From sequence record PQ656108.1: a DNA stretch of 64,000 nt, one strand, 5' to 3'. The position numbers were made by a program, and so were the translations under genes. The notes under the pieces were generated by a model. That model made no database searches, was not told the origin of the DNA, and was given only the letters and a program-made list of their open reading frames with translations. Positions 2,925 to 59,400 of the stretch are shown here, in pieces (the stretch's first letter is position 1; every line of letters starts with the position of its first letter). Origin of the DNA: Acinetobacter phage At2.

Positions 2925-3142
2925 ATACTATCCTAGCTTTCATCTTGCTATGTGTTTATACGTATGTATGTGGCCTACGTGATGTAGGCTCAACTACATT
3001 TAAACTATTAGTTTTAATCATTATTATCTTAATTGGTATGCCATGAAACTATATACATTCGCTCTACATATACATGAGATCATGTCACTCGTCATGATCT
3101 TAATCTCAATCATTACAGCAACTTACTTGGTAGGACAACACA

Positions 3143-3397
3143 ATGGAAGAAAAAAGTGAATTAGATGTAGCCTTGGAGTACATCGCAGATTACCCAGAGA
3201 TCACAGAAACACTTAACGATGAAGAGTTTGCAACATTCTTTGCTCACCCTTCTGAAGTTATTAAAGAGTACAAACGTAACATTGAGTTCTTGAAAACATC
3301 CTTTGGGTTCACCGAAGAAATGATCCAAGAGAACTGTGTTGCCTTCCTAAATGATGCTTGTGCACACGTACAAGACCTACACTCTAAAGAGAGCTAA
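3143..3397 (+). CDS. hypothetical acidic protein (84 aa)
   Basis: ORF. Confidence 0.45.
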   Translation: MEEKSELDVALEYIADYPEITETLNDEEFATFFAHPSEVIKEYKRNIEFLKTSFGFTEEMIQENCVAFLNDACAHVQDLHSKES

Positions 3398-7133: not shown

Positions 7134-7427
7134 ATGTATAGCAAGACTAATATAAATATTTTAATACCTTTACAGGCTGATGTAGACAGTTTAGTACGAG
7201 GTGGTGTTAATGCTTCCATGCATGTAAGGTCTCGTAATCCTACCTCAGAAGAATGTGTTGTTTATTGTGTGATGTCTAATAAGCTATACATGGTATACAA
7301 AATGGATCCCTGTAACAAAAATGTCTCTTCAGAGACAGTAAGACAGCTTACTACATTAGAAAGTGTAGAAGAGCGCTTAGTGCTTGCAGGTGCCTTAGGA
7401 CTTAAACGAGGGCCAGATTATGGTTAG
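7134..7427 (+). CDS. small protein, weak member of the C-terminal-motif family
   Basis: C-terminus VRQLTTLESVEERLVLAGAL resembles the family motif but lacks the Pro. Confidence 0.4.
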   Translation: MYSKTNINILIPLQADVDSLVRGGVNASMHVRSRNPTSEECVVYCVMSNKLYMVYKMDPCNKNVSSETVRQLTTLESVEERLVLAGALGLKRGPDYG

Positions 7428-7698
7428 GTTAACTGAACAGCAAGTTAAATTACTTAGACGTATTTTGCCATCTATAACACTATCAGACACAGTTTATAAA
7501 AACTTAGAGCATCCTACGTTAATTACATATGTGGGTAACTATGTTTGGAGTTTTCATAGCAACCGTATTGTGTACCTTACGTATACCAACTCAGCACACA
7601 GACCACAAGTTACTGATGAAGAATTAACAATGCTAACTCTAATTCCTGATGCGGAAGCCAAGCGTGAGTACTTAAAAGCATTGGTAATGGAGCGATAA
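7420..7698 (+). CDS. C-terminal-motif family protein (92 aa)
   Basis: C-terminus DEELTMLTLIPDAEAKREYLKAL; clear paralog of 7703-7981 (MVxLTxQQ start, VW, SNxIVYL). Confidence 0.55.
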   Translation: MVRLTEQQVKLLRRILPSITLSDTVYKNLEHPTLITYVGNYVWSFHSNRIVYLTYTNSAHRPQVTDEELTMLTLIPDAEAKREYLKALVMER

Positions 7699-7702
7699 AC
7701 TA

Positions 7703-7981
7703 ATGGTTAAACTAACCCGACAGCAAATGTCACTGTTACTGAAACACGCACCTACTATAGGTGTATCTGGTATAGCTAGTAAATACTTTGCTTACCCTAT
7801 AGAAGATACGTTAGGTCGTAATTTCGTCTGGCACTATAAAAGTAATGCCATTGTTTATTTATCAGATGCTTCTTCAGTCACTGCTATAAGCATCTCAGAT
7901 GATGATCTTCTCGCTATGGTTTTATTACCTAGTGAAGAAGCTAAAGATTCATACTTTGCACACATTTTAATGAGTACTTGA
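7703..7981 (+). CDS. C-terminal-motif family protein (92 aa)
   Basis: C-terminus DDDLLAMVLLPSEEAKDSYFAHIL; paralog of 7420-7698. Confidence 0.55.
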   Translation: MVKLTRQQMSLLLKHAPTIGVSGIASKYFAYPIEDTLGRNFVWHYKSNAIVYLSDASSVTAISISDDDLLAMVLLPSEEAKDSYFAHILMST

Positions 7982-11002: not shown

Positions 11003-11077
11003 ACGCCATTAGCTCAGTTGGATAGTAGCAATCTCCTCCTAAGAGATAGGTCACAGGTTCGAGTCCTGTATGGCGTA
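11003..11077 (+). tRNA. tRNA-Arg (anticodon CCT; CCU in RNA)
   Basis: Cloverleaf read by eye: 7-bp acceptor ACGCCAT/ATGGCGT; anticodon stem ATCTC/GAGAT with loop CTCCTAA; T-arm ACAGG-TTCGAGT-CCTGT; discriminator A and encoded CCA. Confidence 0.75.
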
Positions 11078-13203: not shown

Positions 13204-13458
13204 ATGCAATTTTACATAATGATGGCAATTGTCACCTTCATTATTTTGGTGATTCGTACTCACATTGTAAGACGTAAAGAAGGAATGGATCCTTATAAGA
13301 TGGAAGGCTTTGTAGCCTACTATGCGTTATTAGCAATAGCATCTTGCTTATGGATCCTGACATGGCCTTGTCTAATCATCTACGGTGTAATTGAATTAAT
13401 TACTTATCTATTAGATAAGTCAGTACTCCGTAAATACCTTAAAAAGGAAAAACCATAA
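13204..13458 (+). CDS. small membrane protein (84 aa, two TM)
   Basis: Hydrophobic helices MAIVTFIILVI and ALLAIASCLWILTWPCLIIYGVI. Confidence 0.45.
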   Translation: MQFYIMMAIVTFIILVIRTHIVRRKEGMDPYKMEGFVAYYALLAIASCLWILTWPCLIIYGVIELITYLLDKSVLRKYLKKEKP

Positions 13459-14276
13459 TGTTTAAGTCATTACGTGGCGTTGCACTAGCTATCTGTGCTG
13501 CCATTGCCTTTGCAGGTTGTTCACCTGTAGTTAAAGTTAGTGATGCCGAAGTAGGTATCCGTGAAACCTTCTCAGGTGAAATTAAAGACAAAGTCTTAGA
13601 GCAAGGCTTCCACCAAAAGGTTGTTGGTAATGTTATCAAGGTATCTAAACGTAACTTGGTACTTACAGTTAAAACCAACCCGATTACTGTAGAAAAAGTT
13701 CCTATGTCGCAGTTTGTGACTAAGATCAACTACGGTATTAATCCTGCAATGGCTGCTGTTGCCTATAAGACAGAAAAGTCTCAGAACTTAGATGTTGATG
13801 GTGAAGTGCTGCTGCTAGGTAAGTATGTAAGTGATATCACTGATGCTGCTGTACAGACTGCTGTAAGCAAGTACAAAGCCTTAGAGGTGAATGATCACCG
13901 TACTGAACTTGAAGCTGCCATTAAATCTGAACTAAACAAGCGTCTTAAGCTTGGTGGTAAAGATGTGTATGTCACAGTCAATGAAGTAAATATCTTGGCA
14001 GTGAAACCACACGAATCAATCATTGCTTCATCTTTGGCAATTGTTAACTCTCAGAACGCTTTGAAAACTAAGCAGAATGAGCTTGAAACAGCCAAGGTAG
14101 AAACAGAAGTAAAACGTGTCTTAGCAGAGAATGCCTCTGAAAAGTACATTGATTTACAACGTGCAGAAGCTGAAATGTTGAAATCACAGGCCCTATTAGA
14201 AGCTGCTAAGAAAGGTACATTAAACACTATGGTTATTGTTCCTGAAAAGTTCAGCGCATTGGGTGCCGTTAAGTAA
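13458..14276 (+). CDS. lipoprotein with SPFH/band-7-like domain (putative)
   Basis: Signal peptide plus lipobox FAGC; C-terminal Ala/Glu-rich helix (LQRAEAEMLKSQALLEAAKKG) typical of prohibitin/HflKC-like proteins; family call is a motif-level inference. Confidence 0.5.
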   Translation: MFKSLRGVALAICAAIAFAGCSPVVKVSDAEVGIRETFSGEIKDKVLEQGFHQKVVGNVIKVSKRNLVLTVKTNPITVEKVPMSQFVTKINYGINPAMAAVAYKTEKSQNLDVDGEVLLLGKYVSDITDAAVQTAVSKYKALEVNDHRTELEAAIKSELNKRLKLGGKDVYVTVNEVNILAVKPHESIIASSLAIVNSQNALKTKQNELETAKVETEVKRVLAENASEKYIDLQRAEAEMLKSQALLEAAKKGTLNTMVIVPEKFSALGAVK

Positions 14277-14535
14277 TTGGTGTATTGTGAGTAAATTCCA
14301 CATTAGGGCTGCAACAGCCTATAAAGTAATTAATGAATTAGGTTTTAGACCTGACAGGTTTACTTTACCACCTACACCAGAAAGTAATTCTCTTTATGGT
14401 GTAAATTTTAAGTTACGTACTGTGTTTTATATGACTCGGTCAGATAAACCAAGACGCAATCTTTCATTTGAAGAGATACGTGAGTTATCAATATTACCTA
14501 TTGAAGCTCATGATGTTTGGATTGAAAATCTTTGA
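14236..14535 (+). CDS. C-terminal-motif family protein (start uncertain)
   Basis: C-terminus SFEEIRELSILPIEAHDVWIENL. Confidence 0.4.
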   Translation: MFLKSSAHWVPLSNWCIVSKFHIRAATAYKVINELGFRPDRFTLPPTPESNSLYGVNFKLRTVFYMTRSDKPRRNLSFEEIRELSILPIEAHDVWIENL

Positions 14536-14556
14536 ACCCTTCGGGTTCTTTTGCGG
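14534..14556 (+). terminator. rho-independent terminator
   Basis: GAACCC-ttcg-GGTTC followed by TTTTG. Confidence 0.6.
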
Positions 14557-14585
14557 TTTGTCTCTTTGGAGACAGACCCACTATG

Positions 14586-14655
14586 GTGTGTGTAGCACGG
14601 TCTGGTAGTGCATCAGTCATGAAGAAGGTCGTAGGTTCGAATCCTACCACACATC
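14586..14655 (+). ncRNA. degenerate tRNA-like element (possible tRNA pseudogene)
   Basis: Acceptor GTGTGTG/CACACAT, D-arm GCAC-GGTCTGGTA-GTGC and perfect T-arm GTAGG-TTCGAAT-CCTAC. Only 18 nt lie between the D- and T-arms, so no canonical 17-nt anticodon arm plus variable loop fits. Confidence 0.35.
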
Positions 14656-14662
14656 CGCGATG

Positions 14663-14737
14663 GTCGAGGTAGCTCAGTAGGTAGAGCAGTGGACGATAAT
14701 CCAAAGGTCGCAGGTTCGATTCCTAGCCCTGACCCCA
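14663..14737 (+). ncRNA. tRNA-like element with non-canonical anticodon loop and mismatched T-stem (possible tRNA pseudogene or atypical tRNA)
   Basis: Acceptor GTCGAGG/CCCTGAC (one A.C mismatch) plus encoded CCA; canonical D-arm GCTC-AGTAGGTA-GAGC; anticodon region forms only a 4-bp stem with a 6-nt loop CGATAA; T-stem has two mismatches. Confidence 0.35.
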
Positions 14738-15480
14738 AACATTATTGGGCATGAAGAAACATCTTACTTACAGGTTCATCAGCAGCCTGTTACGGGTACT
14801 ATGTAGTCCCGTCTTGTCCACCAAATATTAAAGAATTAAACCAAGGCCAATAACACGGCTCCCTTACTCTGCAGGTTAGGGATAACAAGTTGAGGTATGG
14901 TAAGTGATTACGTATAGCTTCCCCTTGGTTTGATGGGCAGTGAGCTTAAAGCCACTGTCTCCTATGGCGAGACCCAACAATATTATGGTTGGTGAGCTTC
15001 TACCACCTATGGTCTAAATAGGTCAATAAGACTAACAGTGCAATGCTAGTGATTACGGAGTAGATCTTCCGAAAGCTAGTAACACTGTTATTGCTCTTAT
15101 TGGGTTGCAAACATGACAACTCAGAACATATCAGTGGTGAGGTTAAATCTCCTGTGACCCATGTAAATATGACTGCATAGAGGCTTTAATACTGGTTTAG
15201 CCTGGAAGGAAGAGGGTAGCTCCCGACTTACCTATAACCATACTAGAGATTCGTCATCTCTGGGTGTTTGCAACGCCAATAAGAGTACCTCTGCCCCGAC
15301 TTGTGGCATTAGCTTCCTGCTGTATGACAGGTGACCTCCAAAGCTAGTATCTTCCTTTAGTGTTTACCTCATAGGCACTAAATAGAGACGTAACGAGTAA
15401 GCCAAGGGCAATCACCCTGAATGCCATGTTTTCCCTATGGTGGCGATCAAGGGAACCAAATTAACCTTTAACCTCTTTTA
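14738..15480 (+). ncRNA. candidate large structured non-coding RNA (about 750 nt, ORF-free)
   Basis: No ORF of 60 aa or more on either strand; lies between tRNA-like elements and a strong terminator; long-range complementary segments (GTTGCAAACA near 15105 and TGTTTGCAAC near 15265). Confidence 0.35.
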
Positions 15481-15517
15481 CCCTACATCTTCCCCAAGGA
15501 TGTAGGGTATTTTTTTA
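15481..15517 (+). terminator. rho-independent terminator
   Basis: CCCTACATC-ttccccaag-GATGTAGGG followed by TATTTTTTT. Confidence 0.7.
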
Positions 15518-15533
15518 ACCCAAGGAACAAAAC

Positions 15534-15845
15534 ATGGATATTGCAAATTTAGTGCTTGAATTAGCTAAACCCGAGCATCTCATCTACATAAATGTTTTAG
15601 GTGTAATCACTACACTGAAACATGATTGTATTGATGGTTACGTAGGGTTAGACGCATCAGGTGAACTGTACTATTACGATAAAAAACCTATGCCTTGGGC
15701 AGATTATGGTTGGAGTCGTGGAATAGGTGGTGAATCACGCTTACTATTAAACCTCAGACAGTTTATTAATATAAATGAGGGTGAATTCCCTTATCAAAAT
15801 GTATGTTTCCCTGTCAGGGAAATACTTATAAAGGCACCAGTATGA
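15534..15845 (+). CDS. hypothetical protein, paralog A of a duplicated pair
   Basis: MDIANLVLELAKPEHLIYINVLGV... resembles the N-terminus of the next gene. Confidence 0.5.
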   Translation: MDIANLVLELAKPEHLIYINVLGVITTLKHDCIDGYVGLDASGELYYYDKKPMPWADYGWSRGIGGESRLLLNLRQFININEGEFPYQNVCFPVREILIKAPV

Positions 15846-16165
15846 ACATCCCTGAAATAGCTCTTGAGCTTTCCAACCCTAACTCAGTGGGTTATGTAAA
15901 TTATCTAGGCTTAATCTTACCTATTCCTATGGACTATATGGCAGAAGGTTATATAGCTACTGATCAGTCTGGACAGACTTATGTATATAACTTTGAGCCT
16001 TATTTAGATTCAGATAAACAGTGGTCGCCTTCATTTATAAACAACCCTATGGCTAAGATACAACACGTTACTGACTTAAGGGGATTCTTAGGACAGTTCT
16101 GTTCTATAGATGCTAGTGAGCTGTGTATTAAACTTTCTGAAATTCAGGTTAATCCTATCTATTGA
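15842..16165 (+). CDS. hypothetical protein, paralog B of a duplicated pair
   Basis: MNIPEIALELSNPNSVGYVNYLGL...; start adjusted from track 15803. Confidence 0.5.
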   Translation: MNIPEIALELSNPNSVGYVNYLGLILPIPMDYMAEGYIATDQSGQTYVYNFEPYLDSDKQWSPSFINNPMAKIQHVTDLRGFLGQFCSIDASELCIKLSEIQVNPIY

Positions 16166-16201
16166 CAGGGCTTCGCCCTGTTGAGTGGTTGGGTTCCCAA
16201 C
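16166..16201. promoter_or_regulatory. two tandem short hairpins (CAGGGC-ttc-GCCCTG and GTTGG-gttc-CCAAC)
   Basis: Perfect short inverted repeats, the first with a 3-nt loop, just upstream of the HTH gene; possible hairpin promoters or processing sites. Confidence 0.3.
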
Positions 16202-16270
16202 TAAACAGATGGCTTAAGGAATAGAAGTATTCCTAAGCCATTTACCATTAATTACTTTTAAGGAATTCTT

Positions 16271-16564
16271 ATGAAATCCCGTAAACCACTTACACCTTCC
16301 GAAGCTGTAGTTGTTGTCGCTGAATGGCAGCGTCCTAAAGGTGAACGCCCTACTCAGGAAGATTTAGCACTCCGCTTCAATGTTGCTCCTGTAACTATTC
16401 GCCGTGCTTTAGCCGAAGCAGGTCTTATGGAACTGAAAGGCTATAAGACAGAAAAGGAAACTGCAATCATTGAGTTCCTTAAATCTCAAGGTCTTAACGA
16501 TTTAGATGCTTTACGCAAATTCATTGTTAAGGCACGGAATAAACAACGTGGCAAACAAAATTAA
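16271..16564 (+). CDS. putative HTH DNA-binding protein (97 aa)
   Basis: LALRFNVAPVTIRRALAEAGL resembles a helix-turn-helix. Confidence 0.45.
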   Translation: MKSRKPLTPSEAVVVVAEWQRPKGERPTQEDLALRFNVAPVTIRRALAEAGLMELKGYKTEKETAIIEFLKSQGLNDLDALRKFIVKARNKQRGKQN

Positions 16565-16745
16565 GCCAGAGTTCATACCTGTATATCCTGTATCGGACTC
16601 TTTAGATGACGCATGGGAACACATGCGTTCCCAATTACCAATTGATTCAATCAATGACTTAAAAAGTCTTGTATCCCAATACCACAACACGCTCATAGCT
16701 GAGCTAACTGAACTGGAAAAAGAAAATGGAAACCACATTAAATAA
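16506..16745 (+). CDS. hypothetical small protein (start uncertain)
   Basis: ORF overlapping the previous gene end; the true start may be downstream. Confidence 0.35.
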   Translation: MLYANSLLRHGINNVANKIKPEFIPVYPVSDSLDDAWEHMRSQLPIDSINDLKSLVSQYHNTLIAELTELEKENGNHIK

Positions 16746-17748
16746 AGCTGCTGACCTTATTACTAGCTTCATCTTAGCAGACATCCCTGTAAACCTTATT
16801 GGTTCACCAGGTGTAGGTAAATCCGACATTATCAAACAAGTAGCTGACAAGCTTAACCTTAAAGTTATTGACTTCCGTTTGTCTACTGCTGACCCAACTG
16901 ACTTAACTGGTTTACCATTCGTTGAAGATGGTCGTAGCGTATTCTTACCAAACGTAGCGTTCCCTATCGAAAAAGATGTGGTACCAGAAGGCTATACAGG
17001 TTGGTTACTGTTCCTTGACGAAATCTCGAACGCACCTATGGCTGTTCAAGCTGCTGCCTATAAACTGATCCTAGATCGTGAAGTAGGTTTGCACAACTTA
17101 CATCCAGAAGTGAAGATCGTATCTGCAGGTAACAAAATGACTGATGGTGCTGCTGTAACTGGTGAAATGTCTACGGCATTGAAATCACGTATGGCTCACA
17201 TCAATATCATTCATAGCCTTGAAGTCTGGTTAGACTGGGCAATGGCTGCAGGTGTTCACCACTCGATCACTTCTTACTTGAAGTTCAGTATCAAAGACTT
17301 CTACCGCTTTGATCCTAAAGATAAAGCTGACACCTTCCCTTGTCCTCGTACATGGGCAATGGCTGACAAGCTTGTACAATCATTAGGCACAAACAGTCCT
17401 TTGTTACGTGATGCATTAAGTGCCACTATCTCTGATGGTGTAGCAACTAACTACATCAACTTCTGTAAGAACTTCGCAAACCTTCCTACATTTGCAGACA
17501 TTGTTAAAGATCCTGAAAATGCTGAAGTGCCTCGTGAATTATCTTCATGCTTTGCAATCTCAGGTTCTATCGGTTCACAAACTGATATCACTACTGTAGA
17601 TCAAGTGATGAAGTACATTGACCGTATGCCTATGGAATTCCAACTGTGTACTTTTAACGACTTCGTTAAACGTAACCCAGGTCTTGCAGCAAACACATCT
17701 GTACGTGGCTGGTTACGTAAAAACGCACCTCATTTAACTTCTGATTAA
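16726..17748 (+). CDS. MoxR-like AAA+ ATPase
   Basis: Walker A GSPGVGKSD, Walker B LLFLDEISNA, sensor ALKSRMAHI; arrangement resembles the MoxR family. Confidence 0.75.
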   Translation: METTLNKAADLITSFILADIPVNLIGSPGVGKSDIIKQVADKLNLKVIDFRLSTADPTDLTGLPFVEDGRSVFLPNVAFPIEKDVVPEGYTGWLLFLDEISNAPMAVQAAAYKLILDREVGLHNLHPEVKIVSAGNKMTDGAAVTGEMSTALKSRMAHINIIHSLEVWLDWAMAAGVHHSITSYLKFSIKDFYRFDPKDKADTFPCPRTWAMADKLVQSLGTNSPLLRDALSATISDGVATNYINFCKNFANLPTFADIVKDPENAEVPRELSSCFAISGSIGSQTDITTVDQVMKYIDRMPMEFQLCTFNDFVKRNPGLAANTSVRGWLRKNAPHLTSD

Positions 17749-17754
17749 TAGTTA

Positions 17755-17778
17755 GGGAGCTTCGGCTCCCTTCTCATT
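17755..17778 (+). terminator. hairpin terminator-like element
   Basis: GGGAGC-ttcg-GCTCCC followed by TTCTCATT. Confidence 0.45.
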
Positions 17779-17792
17779 CGTAAGGAAATCGT

Positions 17793-18197
17793 ATGCTGTA
17801 CAACGTAACTCAGATATGTAATGGCTATTTGGCTACTCCTTTTAATAGTAACCACTTACGTAATTTTGCATACCCTGATGATTTACATGATGATCACGCT
17901 AGTGGTTGGCCTGAATATTCATTATGGCAATCAGAAGTATATCCGCCCCTGCTAAACACTTTAGCTGATATGGGTATCCCGTTCATCTGGGAGTTTGTAC
18001 TCACAGAGGACTTCTCATATTTTGCGTACAATTTCCCTACGGATGACAAACCAAACAACCTAGTCCATTACAAGACTGGTAAGCGTAAGCGTGCTCCCCA
18101 TCTAACTAAAAAGATGAAAGCAGAGCTTGAAATCATTAACGCAGCTAACACGCTGCTCTACGAATTAGGAATAAAAAATGGCTCGAATAATGCCTGA
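17793..18197 (+). CDS. hypothetical protein (134 aa)
   Basis: ORF between the AAA+ and vWA genes. Confidence 0.45.
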   Translation: MLYNVTQICNGYLATPFNSNHLRNFAYPDDLHDDHASGWPEYSLWQSEVYPPLLNTLADMGIPFIWEFVLTEDFSYFAYNFPTDDKPNNLVHYKTGKRKRAPHLTKKMKAELEIINAANTLLYELGIKNGSNNA

Positions 18198-31986: not shown

Positions 31987-32196
31987 ATGACTGAAACTGT
32001 ATCTGCTGTAGGCCTTAGTAAAGTAGAAATGAAGTTGTTAAATGACTTCGCAAATATCATCAATGCACGTGAGTATAGTGAGCAAGTTACTATCAAGCGT
32101 CTGCACTTAAACTACGATGAAGCTACTGGATTTAAAATTGACTTACAAGAAGCATCCAACATTGTGCCTATAGAAGAGGTATCTCCTGCTGAATAA
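31987..32196 (+). CDS. small acidic protein (69 aa) on the opposite strand within the minus module
   Basis: ORF divergent from the endolysin, with its own terminator. Confidence 0.4.
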   Translation: MTETVSAVGLSKVEMKLLNDFANIINAREYSEQVTIKRLHLNYDEATGFKIDLQEASNIVPIEEVSPAE

Positions 32197-32210
32197 GCCC
32201 TAAAATAGAT

Positions 32211-32237
32211 AAAGCCCCAATTAAGGGGCTTTATTTT
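32211..32237. terminator. bidirectional terminator
   Basis: AAAGCCCC-aattaa-GGGGCTTT followed by ATTTTTG; read from the other strand it also terminates the minus gene 32248-32505. Confidence 0.65.
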
Positions 32238-32247
32238 TGTCTACTGA

Positions 32248-32505
32248 TTATTCAGCAGCTTTATGAAGTAAGGCGTGTAGATTTTCTACATACTTGCCAA
32301 TCATAGCATCAATAGACTTTAAGCAAACTTTACTATCTTCATAGTGTTCACCTGCTTTTGATTTAAGGTGATGATCAATAGCTACAGCTAACTCTGCAGA
32401 CTGTGCACCAATAAAATCAGTATTGAGGTGAGTAGCACCATGACGTAATGAATGCTCTACCATAGGCTTTGCAACTTCTGTTGCGATTAATGCAAGTGTG
32501 GACAT
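32248..32505 (-). CDS. hypothetical protein (85 aa)
   Basis: ORF. Confidence 0.4.
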   Translation of the reverse strand: MSTLALIATEVAKPMVEHSLRHGATHLNTDFIGAQSAELAVAIDHHLKSKAGEHYEDSKVCLKSIDAMIGKYVENLHALLHKAAE

Positions 32506-32522
32506 AATAAATTCCTTAGCTA

Positions 32523-32545
32523 ATAAGTAAAATAAAACCCCTATG
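32523..32545 (-). terminator. hairpin terminator (minus strand)
   Basis: ACCCC-tatgaa-GGGGT; on the minus strand it is followed by TTTATT just after the stop of 32541-32828. Confidence 0.45.
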
Positions 32546-32828
32546 AAGGGGTCTTACCTTTGTCAGTCATGGACTGTACGTATCGAGCAAACTTAGTCAA
32601 ACCATTAGATAAAGCTTCTGCATCCTCTGGCCTCTCTTTAAGAAAAGAGCTAAACCATTCATCTAGGGTAAGGCTAGGTTTCTCTTTACCTATAGCCATA
32701 GAATACGCTGCTTCAAAATTACCAGTAGTCATTGCATACTGATAAGCCTCTTGGTTTGACATAACAACTTTAATCTTAGCAATGTTGTCATCACTGTAAC
32801 CTTGTTGTTTTAAAATTTGCTCTAACAT
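32541..32828 (-). CDS. hypothetical protein (95 aa)
   Basis: ORF. Confidence 0.4.
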   Translation of the reverse strand: MLEQILKQQGYSDDNIAKIKVVMSNQEAYQYAMTTGNFEAAYSMAIGKEKPSLTLDEWFSSFLKERPEDAEALSNGLTKFARYVQSMTDKGKTPS

Positions 32829-32839
32829 ACTCCAGTACC

Positions 32840-33703
32840 TTACGCTCTTACGTTAGTGTTTGTGTTAGTTGGGTTTGCTTGTTGGAAACCGCCAATGTTA
32901 ATAGCTTGGTTAGTTGCTTGGATATTCTGCAATGCTGCAGCCAAACCGTTAGTCAAGTTATTTAGTACCTGAGCCTGAGCTTGGAACTGTAATTGGTTTT
33001 GGTTTTGTTGGTTTGTCATGTTGATTTCAATTCCGTGACGGTCTTCACTCCTGCGAGCTTCTGCACGTAATTCATTGATTTCATCTTGACGCTCACCTAA
33101 CAAACGCTGCATGTTAGCGTTTTCATACGATGTGATTAAAGCACGAGTCTTTTCACCATCATTCTGAATAACTTGAGCTAACTCAAACTTACCGTTAAGA
33201 ATTGCTGTACCTAATTGATTACCTACTGCAAGAGTAGTTTCACGGTTAGCACTTGCTGCTGCCAAAGCTGTAGCAATAGACTCAGAGATATTTTTATTAA
33301 TACCTGCTTGGCCTTGAATAGCAGTCTGTAAGCCAGTAGCGATGTTTGCATTAATACCTACCGCAGCGTTATTAATACTACCAGTAAGATCTGCAGTTGC
33401 TCCTGCTAGGGCAAGTTGTACTTGGCCTTCTGCTAAAGGAACTGCTGCTTTGATATCACCGAGTCCATTAAGAACTTCGGTATTCATTTGAGTATCAGTT
33501 ACGTTAGCAAGTTGAGCAGATAGGTTAGAAGGAGTTACACAACCTTCAGCTACACCACCACCGCCAAGTAAACCATTACCATTACGTCCTAAGAGTGAAC
33601 CCAACACAAGACCTCCAATAAGTCCACCACCTAAGCCAAGACCCATACCGTCAGAACCTCCACCAGTAGCAACCATAGCAGGCATTGTAGATTGTAAATG
33701 CAT
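32840..33703 (-). CDS. glycine-zipper N-terminal / Gln-Asn-rich coiled-coil protein (287 aa); function unknown, candidate membrane-active lysis or ejection protein
   Basis: N-terminus GGGSDGMGLGLGGGLIGGLVLGSLLG (GxxxG repeats, a single hydrophobic segment); C-terminus QNQNQLQFQAQAQVLNNL is a low-complexity helix. Confidence 0.45.
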   Translation of the reverse strand: MHLQSTMPAMVATGGGSDGMGLGLGGGLIGGLVLGSLLGRNGNGLLGGGGVAEGCVTPSNLSAQLANVTDTQMNTEVLNGLGDIKAAVPLAEGQVQLALAGATADLTGSINNAAVGINANIATGLQTAIQGQAGINKNISESIATALAAASANRETTLAVGNQLGTAILNGKFELAQVIQNDGEKTRALITSYENANMQRLLGERQDEINELRAEARRSEDRHGIEINMTNQQNQNQLQFQAQAQVLNNLTNGLAAALQNIQATNQAINIGGFQQANPTNTNTNVRA

Positions 33704-50495: not shown

Positions 50496-53400
50496 TTAGA
50501 ACATACCAGTCATCATCTTGATTGGTAATGGCTCATCCAATGCACTTGGTAAGCCTAAAGCTCCACCACGCATAGGGTTACCCATGTTAAACCAAATCAA
50601 AGGATCAATACCAGCTTCTAAGTTAGTGAAGCTATTAATGAACACTGCTTGGGCCATAGCTGTAGCAGGACGCTTCTTAAGCAACTGGAACAATGCTTTC
50701 TGAATACGGATATTATATTTAGTAAACATAACAATACCCATATCGTTTAAGTACTGTAAGCCACGTGCTGTAGGTACGTCATAGTTCACAAAGTTATCAG
50801 AAGCAATCTGAATAGCATCTTCATGACTAAGCTTCTCTTTAGCCTTCTGAGTGTAGTACTTGTACATTACATACTTAGAACTAAAGTCAGAGAACTGGGT
50901 AGCGTTATTCAAGAACTTATACAAAGGAGTATCTGGAGATACAAATGCCCACTTAGCTGCAGTCTTAACAGATTTAGGTACACCACTTGTTAAGTTATCT
51001 ACCTTCTCCTGTAACCTGCTCTTATAAGAATAATGATCTGTAGATGGATCAACATCCTCAACAATAGTAGGCATCATACCTTCTTCAATAAACCCTGCTA
51101 ATGGGTTACGGCTAATAGAGTGCTCAAGAGCTAATGCCTCTTGTTCTAGCTTATTAAAGTCACCTACACCTGCACGTTGGTTCTGACGAATAGCCATTAA
51201 ACGTGCCATAGACTTACGATAAGCTAAACCAGAACGAATAGCTAACATACTGTCCTTAACAATATCAGTAGGACTTACACCATGAGCCATCAATAACATT
51301 GCGTTAGACATTGTATTTGCAAGCATGGTTTTAACGTTACGAATAACAATAATGTCCTTCATAAGGGATACACCTTCCTGCCAAGCCCTCTCAAACCTTA
51401 CCCCTTTCAACTTAGCGTTGTTACCAAATAACTCTACCATCGTACCTGTATAAATCTTCTCAAACATAGACTTAGCTTCATCCATCTTATCGAAGGCTTG
51501 GTTAAGCGAGTACTTACGATATCCAAACATAGTAAGTAAAACATCGTTACGTACTAGCATTCCATCTTTACCCCAAACACTTGTAATGTGTTGACGTGTA
51601 TCTTCTGGCAATAATGCCCAGATCTCACGTAAACCATAATCAGTAGAGTTAGGGCCTACAGTTACATACGCACGAGGATTACTTGCAAAGTTAGCCTTGT
51701 AGTCTTCGTACGCAGCATCTACAACATCATTGTTCTGATGCGGTACAGTAACCTTGTTAAAGTTGGTTGCAGCGTATGCACCTAGTAACTCAGCAAAGTC
51801 ATTATTACGTTCAAGCAACGTATCACGGTTCTTACCAGACATTTCATAACTGAAACCAATCACCTTACCTTGAGTATCGTAGTTAGGTACCATGTAGACA
51901 TTCTTGTCTGACATAGGGTTATAGTTCTTATCTGTAGGAACTGCACGACTTACTTTATTGATAGTTGCAGCTAACTCCTTACCTTCCATAAATACCTGAG
52001 TACCTTTACGGTTAGTAGATACGACCTCAATAGCACCAGATACTAAACGCTGAATGTTAGCTTCTTCTGTCATGAATAAGCGGTTAGTGTTTGTACGTGG
52101 ATCAGTTAAGTCTTTACCCAACACACGCACTTCTTTGTAGTACTGTTGCTTCAAGATCTGTGCTTCTGCATCACTACCTGCAATACGAATATCACGGTTA
52201 GGGTTAGTAATTTCAGGCATATAACCTTTAGTTACTGATACAGAGTTATCAGCAAACAGAGTATCTTTAGCTACCTTAGCAAGCTCTTTATGGAACTTAA
52301 TAGATGTATCAATACCATTGGTTTTGTTCTTTAACTCACGGTTGAATACACGAATTAATAAATTCTTAGTAGCGTTGTCTGTGTAGTTAATTGCATACAA
52401 TGAAGCTAACTTATCTGCTAATGCAATACGTGGATCATTCTCAGGCACCAATTCATTATTGAAACCAGAAACAACAAGACGAGCATTCTTAGCTAACCCA
52501 GGGGAAGCCTTACCTGTGATCATATATTTAGCCAACTGCTTAGCACGGTTAGCAATTACTTGATCATTTAATACAGATTCAATAGAGGCAATCTCTTTAT
52601 TATTGAATGACTTGTCAGCATACAACTTAGCAATCTCTTTAGTAGAGTATTGATCTGTTAATGCACCTAAGTCAGCACGTAACATAGTAGTGATTGCTGT
52701 CTTGTCATCTTTAGTTAAGTATTGACCATTTTCTTCAAACGTAGACATCACGTTCTTAGAAGTAGTATCACGCAGGTTCTCTTTAGTCTGGTTATTCAAC
52801 TTAGTAATACGAAGCATACGCTCAACTGCATTCTTAGTACCATCATTGTTAGCAGCTTCATTAATGATCTCACCAAATAATCCTAACTTTTGGTTAGGGT
52901 TATCCATAGTAGCCATCTCTTTAACTACATCCAGAGTAGTCCACAAATCACCTTTAGCAGATAAACGTGTTACGTTTGAAGCAAGACGTACAGCAGTAAA
53001 ACGAGACTTAGCTAATGCATCTTTTTCAGCAAGACTTACCAACCTATCACGTACTTTCTGAGATACACCATCAGTATAGTCAGTAAGCTTTTCCATCTGA
53101 GCCTCTAACTTACTTACAGCAAACTCACGGTTCTTAGCATCAATACGAGCAAGCTCTTTAGACAATAACTCTAGCTTAGAGTTTACTGCTTGGCCCTTAC
53201 GAGAGTTAGTCATCAAACCAAACACAAAATCTAACACCTTATTTACAGCTTCAACAATTCGCTCATAGTTAGTGTCTGGTTTAGTATCCACACCCGATAC
53301 AGCAAAGCCTAATAAACTATTTAATTGTTGAGAGCCTAAAGCCATAGCAGTAAAACGAGCTAATGGTTCAGGGTTATCACGACCTAATTTAAATAGGAAG

Positions 53401-56400
53401 TCATACATATCCTGAGCAGCTTGTTTATCATCAATATCTGCAGTAGCCCAGTCACCTTCATGAAAGCTTTCTGGCTTAAGTTTTGCTTTAGCAGAACGAT
53501 ATGCCTTGTCCATCTCTGCATACACTTGAGTCATAGTCTTATCACGCATACCTGCAACTAAAGCAGTATATAAAGATTCAACTGCAAAAGACTCTTGATC
53601 AGTCATACGGAAACCTGCAGTAACAGCAGTCTCAGTAGTCATAGCATTACCTTGGTTGATGTAATCATCCCAAGCTTGTTCAGGAGACCAGTTACCATCT
53701 TTAGTTAAGAAGGTATCATCTAAACCACGATAAATAGTGTCAGATACTGTACGCATTAACTCAGACAACCTAGCTTTAAAAGCAGGATCTAAATTAGAGT
53801 TTAATGCTTCAAACACTTGCTGAGATGAGTAAGTATCTACTGTATCCCTTGCTTGTTGAGGTGCACCAAAGATAGTTGCTGTAGGCGTAGTATTAGCATC
53901 AGTACGTCCTAATAACTCCGTAGTATCAATGATTAGTGCTTCTAGTGCTGTTGCATCTTTAGCTGAATACTTACGTCCTGTGAAGCTCTCAAGCACACCT
54001 AGGATGTTCTCTACGAATGAACGTAAAGCTGTGATGATACGATCTTTACCACGTGCTGCTTTAGGAGCCATAGTACGATCTAAGTAATCAACAAACTCAG
54101 GGTATGAGAAACCAGTAGCAATAAACTCTTCTACGTTCTTTACACCATACTTAATTACATCACTGGCATTAGGATCAGCTTCCACCTGAGATTTGATGTG
54201 TTCATACAAGGCATCAATCTTATCTAGTGATTCCTTCGCCTTAGCGTGCGTTTTAGGATCCTTACGTACTTGGGCAATAGAATCTACCGTGATAGCGTGA
54301 ACAAGCTCATGCACGAGCATCTGTGCACGAATAGGACTATCGCTACGTAATATGTTGATCTGAGGGTTACCATCTTTGCCAGTAGTAAACCAAGCAGGAT
54401 TATTATTATCCATAGCTTCTTTCACACCATTAGCATTCTCAGGAGCATCAAGATCAGAGAAGTAATTCACTTCTAAACCTTCAGGCATACGCTCAGTGAT
54501 AAGATCAAGCATGGCATCATAGAACTGAGAGAACTTACCTTTGTTACCTTCTGAGTTATGGAACTGCTTAAGTTCAGCTTGAAGCATTGGAACTAGGTCT
54601 GAACCTTTCATAGTACCGTCTTGGTCTAAGTAATCTTGAATAGTTGTTGGCTCAGGTTTTGAACTCAACACTTCGTAGATAGCATTAGCTTGTGCCATGT
54701 CCTTCTTGTAGTCTTTACGTAATTTATCTACAGCATCAACAATCTGTTTACGCTTAGCATTAGTCATTACGAAGTGACCACCTTCTGTACCGTATTGGTT
54801 CACGTTTACCCAAGACTTCATATTATCTAATTTAGCAAGATCACGTTCATAAGCACGTTTAACCATTCCAGGTAAGATACCTAACTCTTCTACAGCAGTA
54901 TCAATAGCTTGTTTATTTGCTTTGTAGAATGTCTTATCGTCAATCAACTTTTGTAATGGGTTCATTAAAGCACGTACAAACTCACGGTTAACATGAGTAG
55001 TCATTAAACCATCTACAAAGGCTTCATTCTGGATCTTAGCCATCTCTTTACCTTGACCTACCTGTGAAGCGTTAGCATCATGATAGTTCTGTACTGGCAT
55101 AGCACCTAGAGCACTGTGAGCAATGAAGGCATCAATAGATTGAATGATTAAAGCTAAACCAGATACACCAGGATCTTTAACTACATCACGTTTAGCGTAC
55201 GCACGTACAGAGAATCCCTTACCTTGTTTAGAGTCCCAAGTACCTACAAAGTTAAACTGTTGTTCAGACATCTTAGTACCATCCCATGCAGTATCTAACT
55301 TCATGAGTGGGATAGAAGATTGCTTACTGTTAGTAGAGTTATTACCCATACCTGAAACTACAGAAGGGGTATAACGAGCAATAGACTTAAGTACTTTCTT
55401 TTCTTGCTGTGAAGATAAACCTTCTTGGCGATTACCTTTAGCATCAGTAATAACGTCAGTAGTGTCTTTCATAGCTTCTTCTAAAGCAGCTTTACGAATT
55501 AACTCATATACCTTAAACCCTGCAACTGCTTGTGCAGTCAAAGTATCACGTACCTCTTGGAAGTCTTTCATAGCAGTCTCAAGAGTGTTCTTAATAGCTT
55601 TACCATGTTGAATAGCAGACACATCTAATAAGGCTTTCTCTTGCTCTGCAGTAAGCATGAATTCCATGATATTACCTTGTGGTACCACTCTAGGTACTGA
55701 ACCAAGGAATGAGTTGTGGTAATCAATTACAGCATTAACAGCATCAACTAAGTTCTGAGCAGCAGCCATATCATTAGTTTTACCTGCCTTCTCTAAACCA
55801 GTATAGAAAGCATTAAGTACTTCACGACCATTGGCACGAATAATAGAAGCATTACCAGCACCATAGTTTGAAGTAGTAGTAATTGGCTTAGCACCTTTAC
55901 GTTTACCAAATGCAGGGTAGATAACACCTAGTGCATTAGCAGAAGCCAAGGCTTTAGGCTTGATATTAGGATCAGCTTTATATTCAGCCCACATCTGTTG
56001 CATGACTCCACCAAGCTGTTCATAGATATCTTCTTTACCTTGCTCTTTGTTAGTAGGTACGTTGGTTTTAGCCTTATTGGTAAATACACCACCTGCCTCT
56101 AACATATCAGCATCAGCAGTACCTAAAGCCACGTTAGTAATAACTGGCCCGTTAGTTACACCATCAGATTCAAATGCAATATCAGTAGTGAATGTACGAG
56201 CACCATCACGCTCAGCAATGTAGTGTTGAGCTAATGCTTGTAATGCACGTACAGACATTGGCCCCATACCAAACTCTTTAACTACACGTTCGATGTTAGC
56301 GATATCTTCTTTAGTACTCTTGGTTTCAATAATTGAAGCCATAGATTCAATACCTGCTTGTACGTAGTCACGTTGCAAGTATTCTTGGAACTTAGGTAAG

Positions 56401-59400
56401 AAAGATGCAGATGACATTTTATCTACTGTCTGGATACCTAATACATCAGATGCACCTTCTGCAGACATTGCTACAGCTTGTAAGAACTCACCATATTTAG
56501 TGGTAGTACCATCAGCATTATGAGTAGGTTCACCTACACCAACTTCTGTGATATGCGCAGACATACCCGCTACAGCACGATGAACTTTGTTAGCCTGTAA
56601 GTTAAATGCAGCATCATAACCGCTACGTTGGTTAGTCCAAATAGTGTGTTCAAAGAAGAACTCTTTAGAGTCATCTCCCAAGTTAGCACGCTGTTCAGCA
56701 ATCAAATCAAGACTACGCTCTAACGCTTGGTTAGCTGCTTCTTGACCTTCCCAGAACCTTTTGTGCATACCATCAAATGAACCATCTTCATTCTGTTTAA
56801 CGTAACCAAACAGTGTTTTAAGATCATCACGAGAAACCTTGTCCATAAATTGCATAGCAGTAGCAGACATCTTGTAGCCATTCTTTTGAGACTTCTCATA
56901 TACATCTTTAGCAAAGCTAGGAATAGCAGAACCCATACGGTTAAACGTATTAGGAGTACTGGTTACTGGCTCAGTAGAAGGTAGTTTGTTATAGCTAGGC
57001 ATATCAAATAGTTTAGATACGATACCGCTAGAACCTTTACTTGATTTAATGATTTGCTCTACACGTTTGTTAGGCTGTACACCATCATCAGTCTTAGGAC
57101 GAATAAATGAGATTGTAGACTTATCAGCTACAGCAGAGTCTTCATTTACAGAGTCTTCATTAGTTGCCATCAAGTCATCACGGGCAGCATCAAATTCAGC
57201 ACGAGGCATTTCAGTACGCTCAATATAACCATTCTGGTTTAGAGCTACTAAAGCCAAGGTACCAACTGCCATTTCTAGTTTAGCCTTACGTGCAGGATCC
57301 ACATCAGATACTGTTTTAAGTCCTAATGCTGCAACTGCCTTTTGACCAATACTAGCTGCCACTGCAGATTGGTGTTCACCCACTGTACGGAACTTAGAGT
57401 AGATATCTTGAGGAATATCTTCCACGTTTGAAACCAATAACAATGAAGCTACTTCACGTTCTGTATTAAGGGTCTTAGATCCATTTTCACCTAACCAAGT
57501 AAACATAGCAGCAGAGATAGCTGTCTTAGTGTTCTCTGGTAATTGACCATCTTCTAATAAGAATTGGTTAAAGTCTTGGTAGCGGAAGTCAGCATAGTCA
57601 TTACCTTTAGCTGTAGTACCTTTACGCTCACGAATTAAACCATCCAACTTAGATGACATAAAGTTAGAGAACTTAACAAAGTCATTTACTGTCTTGCTTT
57701 GAGTGTCAGTGATATATAAACCAGTAATCTCAGATACAGCAGTTTTATTATCACTACGGTTTAAAGTAGTAGTAATGAAGTTAGCTGTCTTATTTAAGAT
57801 GGTGTCTTTCTTATTGAAACCATCTACAACTAAGTTACGTTTGTTAGGTGCCTTAGCTCTTTCAGCAGTACGTGCAGCATTCTTATCAGCAGTCTCAGCA
57901 GAGTTAATATCTTGAGGTTCAGCTTCTTGCTTAGTCTCTTGTACTACTGTCTCATTAGGTTGAGTATCTGTACTTACATCTTGGTTTGCTGTGATTGCTT
58001 TGTCTGTGCTTGTCTGAACTTCCGTTGCTACGTCTTCGCTTACGCTACGACTTGCAACACGTTCAGCCTGCGCTACTTCACCTTCAACACTTCGCTGTTC
58101 GGTATTAGTTGTGGTTGGGGTTCCTTCTTGGGCAGGTTGTACTTCTGCCTGTGTTGTTCCCGTTCCAGGTGTAGCTGTTGTAGTGCCAGGTCGTGTTTGA
58201 GTATTGCGTGGATCTTCGACTCTTCTTGCGCTTTGGAAGTCATAATTGTCTCTCGCTTCTTGATTAAAAGAATCCATAGCATCATCAAAACTCATAGGAG
58301 CAGTTGGAGCTACAGATGGTTGTGAAGTTGGTTCTTGTAACTTAGACATCTCAAGCATAGCATTTTGAGTAGCAGTAATAGCTTGAGCTTCTGCTTGCAT
58401 ATACTCATTCATTTTAGTTACAGCTTCAATCTGTTTAGGTGAGCGAATAGTAATAGCACCATTCTCACGAGCAGCAGAACGAGATAACCAATCTCCTGTA
58501 TTGATTTCCCATGTACCTGCTTCGGTACGTACTACTTGTGTTGGTTGACCAGACATAGCTAATTGTAGGCCTTGTGCAACTACCTCTGCTTTCTGTACAT
58601 GTGATTGTTGGAATGCACCAATCTCACGTAACAAATTAGACTGTTGTACAGCATTACCAGTTTTAACAGCACGAGAGTATTGCTCTAAGTATTGAGGAGT
58701 AGAGCGATAGTTAGCATCAAACTTTTTACCTACTACTTGTTGGTTTACAGCATCAATATCTTTAACAGCATTCTGAGCAGCCACAGCTTCACTTAAAGCA
58801 CGTAAAGCTACCTTAGATGCTTCAGATATCTGAGGATCATTGATAGCAGCATTAATCTGTTCAGGGGTATATGAAGTTGGTGCACCGAAGATCTTCTGTT
58901 CAGTGGTTTGACTTGAAGGAGTACCACCAAGAATACCTGAGTATTTCTCATGCATAGTACGTGCTTCATCTACTAGAGTAGTGGCATGAGTAATAGCATC
59001 ATCTAATGCTTTCTCTTTACCTACGTACTGTTCTACGCTTGCATACTGTTCTTTTAAACCATCAACAATAGATGTGATCTGTTCAGCTTTAGCAGGATCA
59101 GTTTCAGCAAATCGAGCAATAGCAGCTTCACCATTGGCAATATTATTACGTAGTACATCAATACCTTTAAGGGTATCCCTTGCAGACTCTAAACCAGATA
59201 AATGAGTTTCAGCATCCATCATTACGGTATCTACACGCTCACGTACAGCAGCAATTTCTTCTGGAGAAGACTGTGGAGTAACAGCTTTAGCTTCACGGAT
59301 GATTGCAGCAGTAGGGTTGTAATCTGGAGAAGTAGGGTTAGCTAGATCAGCAGTATCGGTATCAGAAAGCTCTGGAGCATTCTCAACCATACGCTCACGT

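Follow-up and report, generated by a model that had tools for sequence, protein, structure and literature searches.

A large, modular non-coding RNA, probably of a new family, in N4-like phages of Acinetobacter

A 64,000-nucleotide (nt) stretch of the genome of Acinetobacter phage At2 (sequence record PQ656108.1; hereafter, the window) contains, just ahead of the gene at position 15534, an element of 683 nt that is very likely, with a probability that we put at roughly 0.85, a plus-strand non-coding RNA with a conserved multi-domain fold that represents a new family in Acinetobacter N4-like phages. As judged by sequence comparison, this is a previously undescribed RNA family that is confined, within the sample, to one clade of such phages, and it appears to represent a new class of large ornate RNA in phages. 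Full-text literature searches did not turn up any account of an RNA like this one from Acinetobacter or N4-like phages. A first-pass annotation, made from the letters of the window, had proposed a real structured non-coding RNA locus beside tRNA-type genes, not junk, and had suggested looking for conservation and covariation in related phages; both were found, in 15 sequences and with heavy covariation, and the proposal is strongly supported.

At2 is an N4-like phage (Schitoviridae), as indicated by an open reading frame (ORF) for a 3342-amino-acid (aa) virion RNA polymerase at 50496-60524, and its closest relatives in GenBank are Acinetobacter phages VB_ApiP_XC38 (Exceevirus; XC38 below) and nACB1. 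In both, the corresponding place is an unannotated gap (750 nt after the tRNAs in nACB1, 667 nt in XC38) that shares short blocks with the window. Homologues of the element were collected with nhmmer, using the SPFH protein encoded upstream as an anchor together with one motif scan. They amount, with the window, to 15 distinct sequences, including XC38, nACB1 and contigs from sewage metagenomes (denoted by L numbers where they have to be told apart); all are phage genomes, phage-like contigs of about 72-80 kb or fragments of such contigs, and identity is 54-91% in the pairs measured. By blastn against GenBank phages, the element, taken as about 750 nt, gave only tRNA matches and one 48-nt block in XC38, and it was synteny alone that brought the homology to light. 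Two motif scans of IMG/VR yielded XC38 itself and chance matches, and a 20-base gapped pattern gave 60 matches in metagenomes and 41 in genomes, among which only L039, L064, L065 and L077 were genuine. The 41 in bacterial and archaeal genomes were all false, the plasmids searched had no match to the element, and neither nhmmer nor a covariance model (CM) found it in the more distant Acinetobacter N4-like phages L011 and L012 (whose SPFH proteins are 59-63% identical) and Presley or in Escherichia coli phage N4.

The homologues range from 320 to 830 nt, and natural variants occur at about 320, 430, 520 and 620 nt and upward, the minimal one being that of L025 (318 nt). All 15 sequences have the 5' domain, whereas the central domain is absent from L013, L021 and L024 (which have a short loop in its place) and the 3' domain from L024 and L025. 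Modularity of this kind, as read from the loss of domains among these sequences, is typical of large RNAs.

The fold is supported by several helices whose sequence has changed while their pairing has been kept. Two complementary 10-mers to which the first-pass annotation had drawn attention, GTTGCAAACA (15104-15113) and TGTTTGCAAC (15265-15274), are both present and turn out to be part of a 20-bp long helix (LH). In an alignment of 14 sequences (A5), LH was 99.3% paired, with changes on both sides at 13 of its 20 pairs and up to four pair types at a position; none of 500 shuffled alignments did as well, and slid controls gave 34-51%. We also asked, over 20,000 permutations, whether the two strands from one sequence have a better duplex energy than strands matched with non-cognate partners, a test that is independent of alignment register; for LH, no permutation matched the cognate strands (0/20000), and the results for other helices are given in Table 1. 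In the 5' domain, the sequence of the closing helix P1 is fully replaced with pairing maintained, as UGGUUGUUGAUG/CAUCACAACCA in nACB1 and GAGCAAG/CUUGCUC in XC38, and P1 together with hairpin Pa (alignment A6) was 90.8% paired, with both-side changes at 10 of 16 pairs (shuffles, 0/500; slid controls, 23-53%).

The 3' domain was found by CM R1 in 13 sequences, with scores of 106-138 bits. The first four to five pairs of helices He and Hg are canonical in all 13, with two to four pair types where they vary, and both stems of an H-type pseudoknot vary compensatorily. For the domain as a whole, including PK1, the tool alignment has both-side changes at 18 of 25 pairs (shuffles, 0/500), with three rows mis-registered. 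Realignment with R1, for which the MAFFT alignment was the seed, reproduced the registers of the seed and left the XC38-type rows uncorrected; helices were therefore scored on gapless strands defined by anchors and by the cognate duplex test. The stem of the terminator that ends the RNA also covaries among homologues, and its loop motif UUCCCCAAG, which is unique in the window, is common to at least six full-length homologues. This terminator had been predicted, as a strong one, by the first-pass annotation and was recovered by a terminator scan, with seven T residues at 15510-15516; it ends 17 nt upstream of the start codon of the next gene. Four candidate tertiary pairings work in some sequences, show no covariation and were set aside: GAGG of the 5' domain with CCUC of the junction, AUCUUCCUU with AAGGAAGA of the central domain, the terminator loop CCCCAAGG with the 3' strand of P1, and the loop of Pa with ACUGCA of the central domain.

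Altogether, more than 40 base pairs show compensatory changes on both sides. The scored helices contain 28 G·U cells as compared with 8 A·C cells, which points to a structure formed by the plus-strand transcript. The minimum-free-energy (MFE) fold of the window RNA has an energy of -223.4 kcal/mol, with z = -6.6 relative to shuffles for the plus strand and -4.3 for the minus strand, and P1, Pa, LH, He, Hg and the terminator all appear in this single-sequence fold. A conserved small ORF that might have accounted for the conservation was looked for and none was found: no ORF in the element is conserved in position among the homologues, mismatches have no 3-nt periodicity (p 0.26-0.99), and most insertions and deletions are not multiples of three.

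An additional feature of the fold is an alternative pairing. The strand X' can pair with X, extending helix Pc, or with X2 (15276-15285), extending LH; since X' is a strand of both, the pairings in Pb and LH are mutually exclusive. Both appear to have been selected, because substitutions in X (UCAAU, UCAGU and CUGAU) all still pair with AUUGG and because X2 covaries too, for example as AUUAG/CUAAU in L077. The three strands might serve as a switch, arise as an intermediate of folding or make a contact between molecules. In the central domain, comparison by eye reveals GGCU/AGCC in place of GCCU/AGGC and GGG/CCC, and CAG...CUG as compared with CUG...CAG in L010; in the variable region, CCAAC/GUUGG likewise corresponds to CCAG/CUGG, CCUG/CAGG and CUGAC/GUCAG in homologues.

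The loop of Pa, YCUGCAG, sits on a highly variable stem, and within it CUGCAG (CTGCAG in DNA), a perfect 6-nt palindrome, is invariant in 15 of 15 sequences. No conserved intramolecular partner for the loop was found in the minimal variant, that of L025 (318 nt). Features of this sort would mark a symmetric kissing loop, as they do in OLE and GOLLD. Because it never varies, the loop itself offers no covariation in proof of a kissing loop. Separately, we note that the hexamer CTGCAG occurs 50 times in the window as compared with 20.7 expected from shuffles, none of 100 of which reached 50; the palindrome is thus over-represented across the phage genome, not avoided.

Table 1. Coordinates of the RNA, its parts and adjoining features (window numbering)
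Feature	Position	Strand	Remark
Terminator 1, intrinsic-terminator-like	14534..14552	+	hairpin GAACCC-TTC-GGGTTC at 14534-14548, then TTTT
10-bp hairpin GGUUUGUCUC-UUUG-GAGACAGACC, then CACTATGG	14555..14578	+	just 5' of tRNA-like element 1
tRNA-like element 1	14586..14655	+	Rfam tRNA (RF00005), 43.6 bits; gathering score 29
tRNA-like element 2	14663..14737	+	Rfam tRNA, 38.0 bits over 14663-14734; gathering score 29
Spacer	14739..14833	+	unconserved in relatives; no terminator inside
Large structured RNA, whole	14834..15516	+	683 nt; nhmmer homology to 14 other phage sequences
Universal 5' domain	14834..14935	+	only site in window matched by nhmmer
Closing helix P1	14835-14846 with 14923-14934	+	cognate test 0/20000
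Hairpin Pa	14861-14867 with 14875-14881	+	loop UCUGCAG, 14868-14874; cognate test 0/20000
Motif GAGGUAUGGUAAG	14892-14904	+	5' domain
GNRA-tetraloop hairpin, loop GUGA	14900-14911	+	5' domain
Motif AUAGCUUCCCC	14914-14924	+	5' domain
Variable hairpin region	14936..15022	+	hairpins gained, lost and replaced among homologues
Variable hairpin GGCAGUG/CACUGUC	14936-14959	+	comparison by eye
Variable hairpin CCAAC/GUUGG inside GAGAC...UGAGC	14974-14992	+	comparison by eye
Variable hairpin CCUAU/AUAGG	15006-15022	+	comparison by eye
Extended hairpin domain	15023..15103	+	each homologue folds so
Helix Pb	X 15023-15032 with X' 15094-15103	+	cognate test 36/20000
Helix Pc, inside Pb	15034-15040 with 15083-15089	+	loop begins CAAUG; cognate test 0/20000
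Long helix LH, 20 bp	15094-15113 with 15265-15274 and 15276-15285	+	conserved bulged purine, G15275
Central domain, optional, enclosed by LH	15114..15264	+	alignment; covariation by eye
Central helix CAUAU/AUAUG	from 15127	+	by eye
Central hairpin with conserved loop UUUAAUACUGGUUUA	15182-15202	+	by eye
Central hairpin AGAGAU-UCGUC-AUCUCU	15245-15261	+	by eye
3' domain	15286..15470	+	three-way junction, pseudoknot; CM R1
Anchor GUGGCAU	15303-15309	+	3' domain
Helix He	15310-15315 with 15341-15346	+	cognate test 0/20000
Hairpin Hf	15316-15331	+	by eye
Single strand GACCUCC	15333-15339	+	conserved, pyrimidine-rich
Single strand AUCUUCCUU	15349-15357	+	conserved, pyrimidine-rich
Helix Hg	15356-15362 with 15376-15382	+	cognate test 0/20000
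Motif UAGAG-AC-GUAAC	15383-15394	+	3' domain
Hairpin Hh	15405-15408 with 15415-15418	+	by eye
Pseudoknot stem PK1 (H-type)	15423-15427 with 15437-15441	+	93.5% paired; cognate test 151/20000
Pseudoknot stem PK2 (H-type)	15431-15436 with 15450-15455	+	cognate test 411/20000
Intrinsic terminator of the RNA	15479..15516	+	13-bp stem 15479-15509, then T7

In the window the RNA is preceded by two tRNA-shaped elements, which had been described as having aberrant anticodon regions. This description holds: both pass the Rfam gathering score, ARAGORN calls neither (the tRNA-Arg at 11003 is the sole tRNA that it reports in the window), and neither has a canonical anticodon arm, with a 5-bp stem, a 7-nt loop and U33, from which an anticodon could be assigned. 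Element 1 has an intact 7-bp acceptor and intact D and T arms, no encoded CCA, and an anticodon arm of 9 nt (3-bp stem, 4-nt loop) where the model expects 13. Element 2 has a good D arm, a 6-nt anticodon loop (CGAUAA), an encoded CCA, a weak or mismatched T stem and an A-C mismatch in its acceptor stem. The variable loop AGGTC is, as had been noticed, common to all three tRNA-type sequences of the window. Element 1 was seen in the window phage only, no counterpart being found in relatives, including L026. The latter, the closest relative sampled (its SPFH DNA is 94% identical), has a single tRNA-like sequence, the counterpart of element 2 (within 2924-3018 of L026, folded as 2937-3013), in which the loop is again CGAUAA (6 nt), the T stem again weak and CCA again encoded. 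In this one comparison, L026 has CGC/GCG in place of UGG/CCA in the anticodon stem, and two acceptor pairs (2 and 4) that are U-A and G·U in the window are both A-U. Given these compensatory changes and the retention of the odd features, element 2 looks structurally constrained, though it is no normal decoder. A weak match to YrlA (27 bits, the gathering score being 69) does no more than cover the two adjoining tRNA-likes and was discounted.

Relatives have genuine tRNA genes in this place. After the SPFH gene there are four bona fide tRNA genes in nACB1, five each in L010, L018 and L019, seven to 12 in L013, L021, L022, L024 and L025, and, between the SPFH gene and the RNA, one ARAGORN tRNA gene in L030. 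By our tally, 13 of the 15 loci, eight of them array-bearing with 4-12 genes, have at least one ARAGORN tRNA gene in that interval, a count in which L039 and L077 lie outside the ARAGORN scan and the window (two) and L026 (one) are represented by tRNA-like remnants; XC38, in which the RNA is present and no tRNA is adjacent, is the exception. Elements 1 and 2, the closest array relatives of the second being tRNA-Met(CAU)-type genes, are best read as what has survived, in decayed form, of a tRNA array that relatives still have intact, and may have been kept as folded processing punctuation. They are not, as the first-pass annotation would have had it, an integral 5' part of the RNA, being remnants of an array that the RNA of XC38 does without. 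The arrays of relatives also hold tRNA genes with non-standard anticodon loops (L013, 6053-6124; L024, 7312-7386; XC38, that is, L001, 2639-2735), to which ARAGORN assigns anticodons of four ("atat"), two ("at") and four ("agta") nt, respectively; with the 6-nt-loop element of the window, the clade seems to retain odd tRNA-like genes. In L010, at 7190-7760, an ORF for a 151-aa HNH-type endonuclease (7276-7731) lies within the tRNA array between tRNA-Pro-like halves, an arrangement that suggests the insertion of a homing endonuclease into a tRNA gene.

Throughout the clade the RNA lies 3' of the SPFH/Band-7 gene (13458-14276 in the window), and of the tRNA array where there is one, and directly 5' of an operon that contains a gene for a MoxR-type ATPase. 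Two claims about the boundaries need to be amended. The RNA is not of about 750 nt: its conserved part is shorter, as the spacer is unconserved in relatives, its position in other phages being occupied by ORFs, a terminator or other sequence. Nor do the tRNA-likes and the RNA form one unit; the locus is a composite, with a terminator between tRNA array and RNA in nACB1 and L010, and, in L010 as well as in certain other relatives, with ORFs in the interval. The supposedly strong terminator upstream does exist as a hairpin followed by TTTT that brings the upstream genes to an end, overlapping with the stop codon of the ORF at 14236-14535, but its strength is modest; it is missing from the output of the terminator scan because it has only four T residues. 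Likewise, the statement that 14557-15530 has no ORF of 60 aa or more on either strand is correct for the plus strand, where the longest ORF wholly inside has 29 aa, and not for the minus strand, where an ORF of 68 aa with a TTG start, presumably spurious, covers the tRNA-likes (14498-14704). Between terminator 1 and element 1 is a further, very stable hairpin, which might stabilise the 5' end or be associated with a promoter. The 52 nt from 14534 to 14585 that include it and terminator 1 fold with z = -5.8, and its counterpart in L026 covaries (GGUUUGGUC-UUCG-GACUGAACC, followed by an identical CCACTATGG). Hairpins with UUCG loops occur at comparable spots in nACB1 and L010. We also observed, in the interval between tRNA array and RNA of L026 (about 3085-3170) and just 5' of the RNA in L021 and L013, a small ORF with conservation at the protein level (...VSPYKIDGP(S/G)xCPTxxGxxYMYE...); it is absent from the window, whose positions 14739-14833 are unrelated.

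How might such an RNA be made and act? Transcription would run rightward through it and its neighbours and stop at the RNA's own terminator. In the window, and wherever else no terminator lies between it and preceding tRNAs or tRNA-likes, tRNA-processing nucleases would probably free its 5' end. The product would be a stable folded scaffold that acts in trans during infection, as proposed here by analogy with GOLLD and ROOL. The invariant self-complementary loop would probably mediate symmetric self-association by a kissing-loop contact, and pairing of X' with X or with X2 may give rise to two alternative conformations. A bolder version, which we regard as speculative and on balance unlikely, would make this the third class of ornate RNA at tRNA islands and the first in culturable, lytic N4-like phages of a Gram-negative host (XC38 and nACB1), with self-assembly through CUGCAG, a toggle between X and X2, and an action of CACCUCC and AUCUUCCUU on the host's translation or tRNA machinery. 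The single-stranded GACCUCC (CACCUCC in L018 and L021) and AUCUUCCUU do resemble the anti-Shine-Dalgarno 3' end of 16S rRNA (GAUCACCUCCUUA).

Several points weigh against the interpretation as a new RNA family with a conserved fold. The RNA is known from its sequence, and its transcription, promoter and 5' end are predicted at most; the upstream motif TTAAAGAATTAAACC, considered as a repeated promoter, is not repeated within the window. The sample is small and narrow, 15 sequences of one clade, and shuffling does not fully remove the effect of their relatedness. Both MAFFT and the CM mis-register the XC38-type rows of the 3' domain, and the central domain, the variable hairpins, Hf and Hh come from inspection by eye. 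The idea of a kissing loop draws only on invariance and palindromy, and the loop could equally bind a protein; the exclusivity of X, X' and X2 could reflect a co-transcriptional folding intermediate rather than a functional switch. Finally, because the terminator ends only 17 nt from the next start codon, a cis-regulatory role is conceivable.

That role would be one of a very long leader or attenuator, which senses a tRNA or metabolite and controls read-through of the terminator into the operon at 15534, with X, X' and X2 as the switch. The proximity of terminator and start codon, which is similar in XC38, nACB1, L010 and L019, the two mutually exclusive conserved pairings and the adjoining tRNA genes speak for such a leader. 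However, the terminator hairpin lies outside both alternative pairings, and no conserved antiterminator was found for either of its strands, the one candidate, CCCUA/UAGGG of the window, being unconserved in XC38. Moreover, known T-boxes and riboswitches, except for those of the ornate HMP-PP (thiS) class, are smaller by several fold, and the loss of whole domains with retention of the terminator in L024 and L025 is hard to square with a single sensor. We therefore consider a leader improbable. At the other extreme is the view that there is no RNA gene at all, and that the region is a DNA-level element (an origin, a packaging site or a protein-binding site) or a decaying pseudogene. The upstream segment 14739-14833 does resemble decayed sequence, and the 5' strand of P1 shares sequence with the end of an ORF in XC38 and L010. 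This view nevertheless has to contend with the compensatory double changes, with an excess of G·U over A·C that makes sense for one transcribed strand only, with a dedicated intrinsic terminator and with the lack of codon periodicity, and we hold its chances to be next to nil.

The remaining alternatives concern known families and were addressed by searches with Rfam 15, at the gathering threshold over the whole window, at E<=10 with relaxed filters over 14400-15700 (1.3 kb) and at E<=1 over six homologous loci. GOLLD (RF01998) and ROOL (RF03087) had no match in any of these; group I (RF00028) and group II introns had none over the element in the window or in the six loci; and for tmRNA, RNase P RNA, 6S, HEARO, OLE, raiA and other Rfam 15 families there was likewise nothing beyond tRNAs and noise. 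ARAGORN found no tmRNA in the window. The identities that had been suggested for the region (GOLLD, ROOL, HEARO, a group I or II intron, or tmRNA) are thus not supported, there being no match at E<=10 in the window or at E<=1 in the six loci. A highly diverged GOLLD or ROOL, beyond the reach of the Rfam seeds, would be of the same kind (phage-encoded, of 0.4-0.8 kb, at a tRNA island, with many helices and a pseudoknot), yet seven loci gave no RF01998 or RF03087 signal and the logic of the domains is the opposite of that in GOLLD; we judge it very unlikely. An intron of group I or II or a known ribozyme, active or a remnant, that formerly sat within one of the array's tRNA genes might be imagined from the surroundings, which are rich in mobile elements: the HNH ORF splits a tRNA-Pro-like gene in L010, a group-I-like signal of 36.8 bits lies elsewhere in L019, and the tRNA-likes have broken anticodon arms. 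But no intron or ribozyme model matched the element in any homologue scanned; the RNA follows the tRNA-likes instead of interrupting them and has its own terminator; in XC38 it has no tRNA nearby; and its fixed position and vertically conserved sequence are unlike those of a mobile intron, so that this origin seems scarcely credible. The signal in L019 (1021-1338, plus strand; gathering score 50, E 9e-6) is among ORFs for N4-type RNA polymerase II and may be an intron in the polymerase gene. In nACB1 (L002), at 14000-17815, the DNA polymerase gene is annotated in pieces with a gene for an HNH homing endonuclease between them. Phage N4 itself (L135, EF056009) has an unannotated gap of 1.5 kb (32112-33632) with four tRNA matches (32451-33127), after which about 500 nt contain no annotated gene, no Rfam match and no similarity to the window RNA.

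Large RNAs whose folds are elaborate and conserved are uncommon, and almost all of those that are understood carry out fundamental chemistry or assembly. Phages have two known classes of this sort, GOLLD and ROOL, both found beside tRNA islands, both forming RNA-only cages and both of unknown function. If the RNA described here is what it appears to be, a third and structurally unrelated class in the same setting would suggest that the link between tRNA islands and giant RNAs is functional, not accidental. Because lytic phages that carry it have been isolated and their Gram-negative host is tractable, deletion mutants, RNA-seq and cryo-electron microscopy are feasible, and the role of such giant RNAs could become accessible to experiment; the natural domain-deletion variants, of about 320-830 nt, are a ready-made series for its dissection.

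Among known systems, the setting recalls the stable RNAs of the tRNA region of T4 and the mascRNA of MALAT1, in which a tRNA or tRNA-like sequence stands in tandem with a stable RNA and tRNA-processing nucleases can define the ends. Here, too, as in phage tRNA arrays, a tRNA-like sequence is next to another RNA, with processing putative; unlike those cases, a terminator separates array and RNA in nACB1 and L010, and XC38 has no adjacent tRNA. OLE resembles our RNA in being a large, highly conserved structured RNA and dimerises with itself by way of a symmetric kissing loop with a covarying palindrome, but it is a bacterial RNA (Bacillota), membrane-associated and protein-bound, and its CM had no match here. 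ROOL is likewise an RNA of phages and prophages found near tRNA islands (its size was given as 500-800 nt by the first-pass annotation); it has multiple pseudoknots, no known protein partner, and a homo-oligomeric form held together partly by kissing loops, for which the invariant palindromic CUGCAG loop would be suited, although self-association is only conjectured for our RNA. Its helices and conserved motifs are different, and there is no CM similarity. GOLLD and ROOL are "often near tRNA islands" (PMC12286853), and GOLLD in particular is large, with many members of more than 800 nt, multi-domain, ornate and of unknown function, with a 3' region conserved throughout its members and a 5' region that is conserved less (PMC12286853). 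Our RNA shares with GOLLD its phage origin, large size, multiple domains, proximity to tRNA islands and division into one universal and one variable half; it differs in being smaller (320-830 nt), confined to Acinetobacter Schitoviridae and devoid of CM similarity, and in that the halves are reversed, the 5' domain being universal (15/15) and the 3' domain dispensable. The likeness to GOLLD and ROOL is thus one of kind and of genomic context, not of family.

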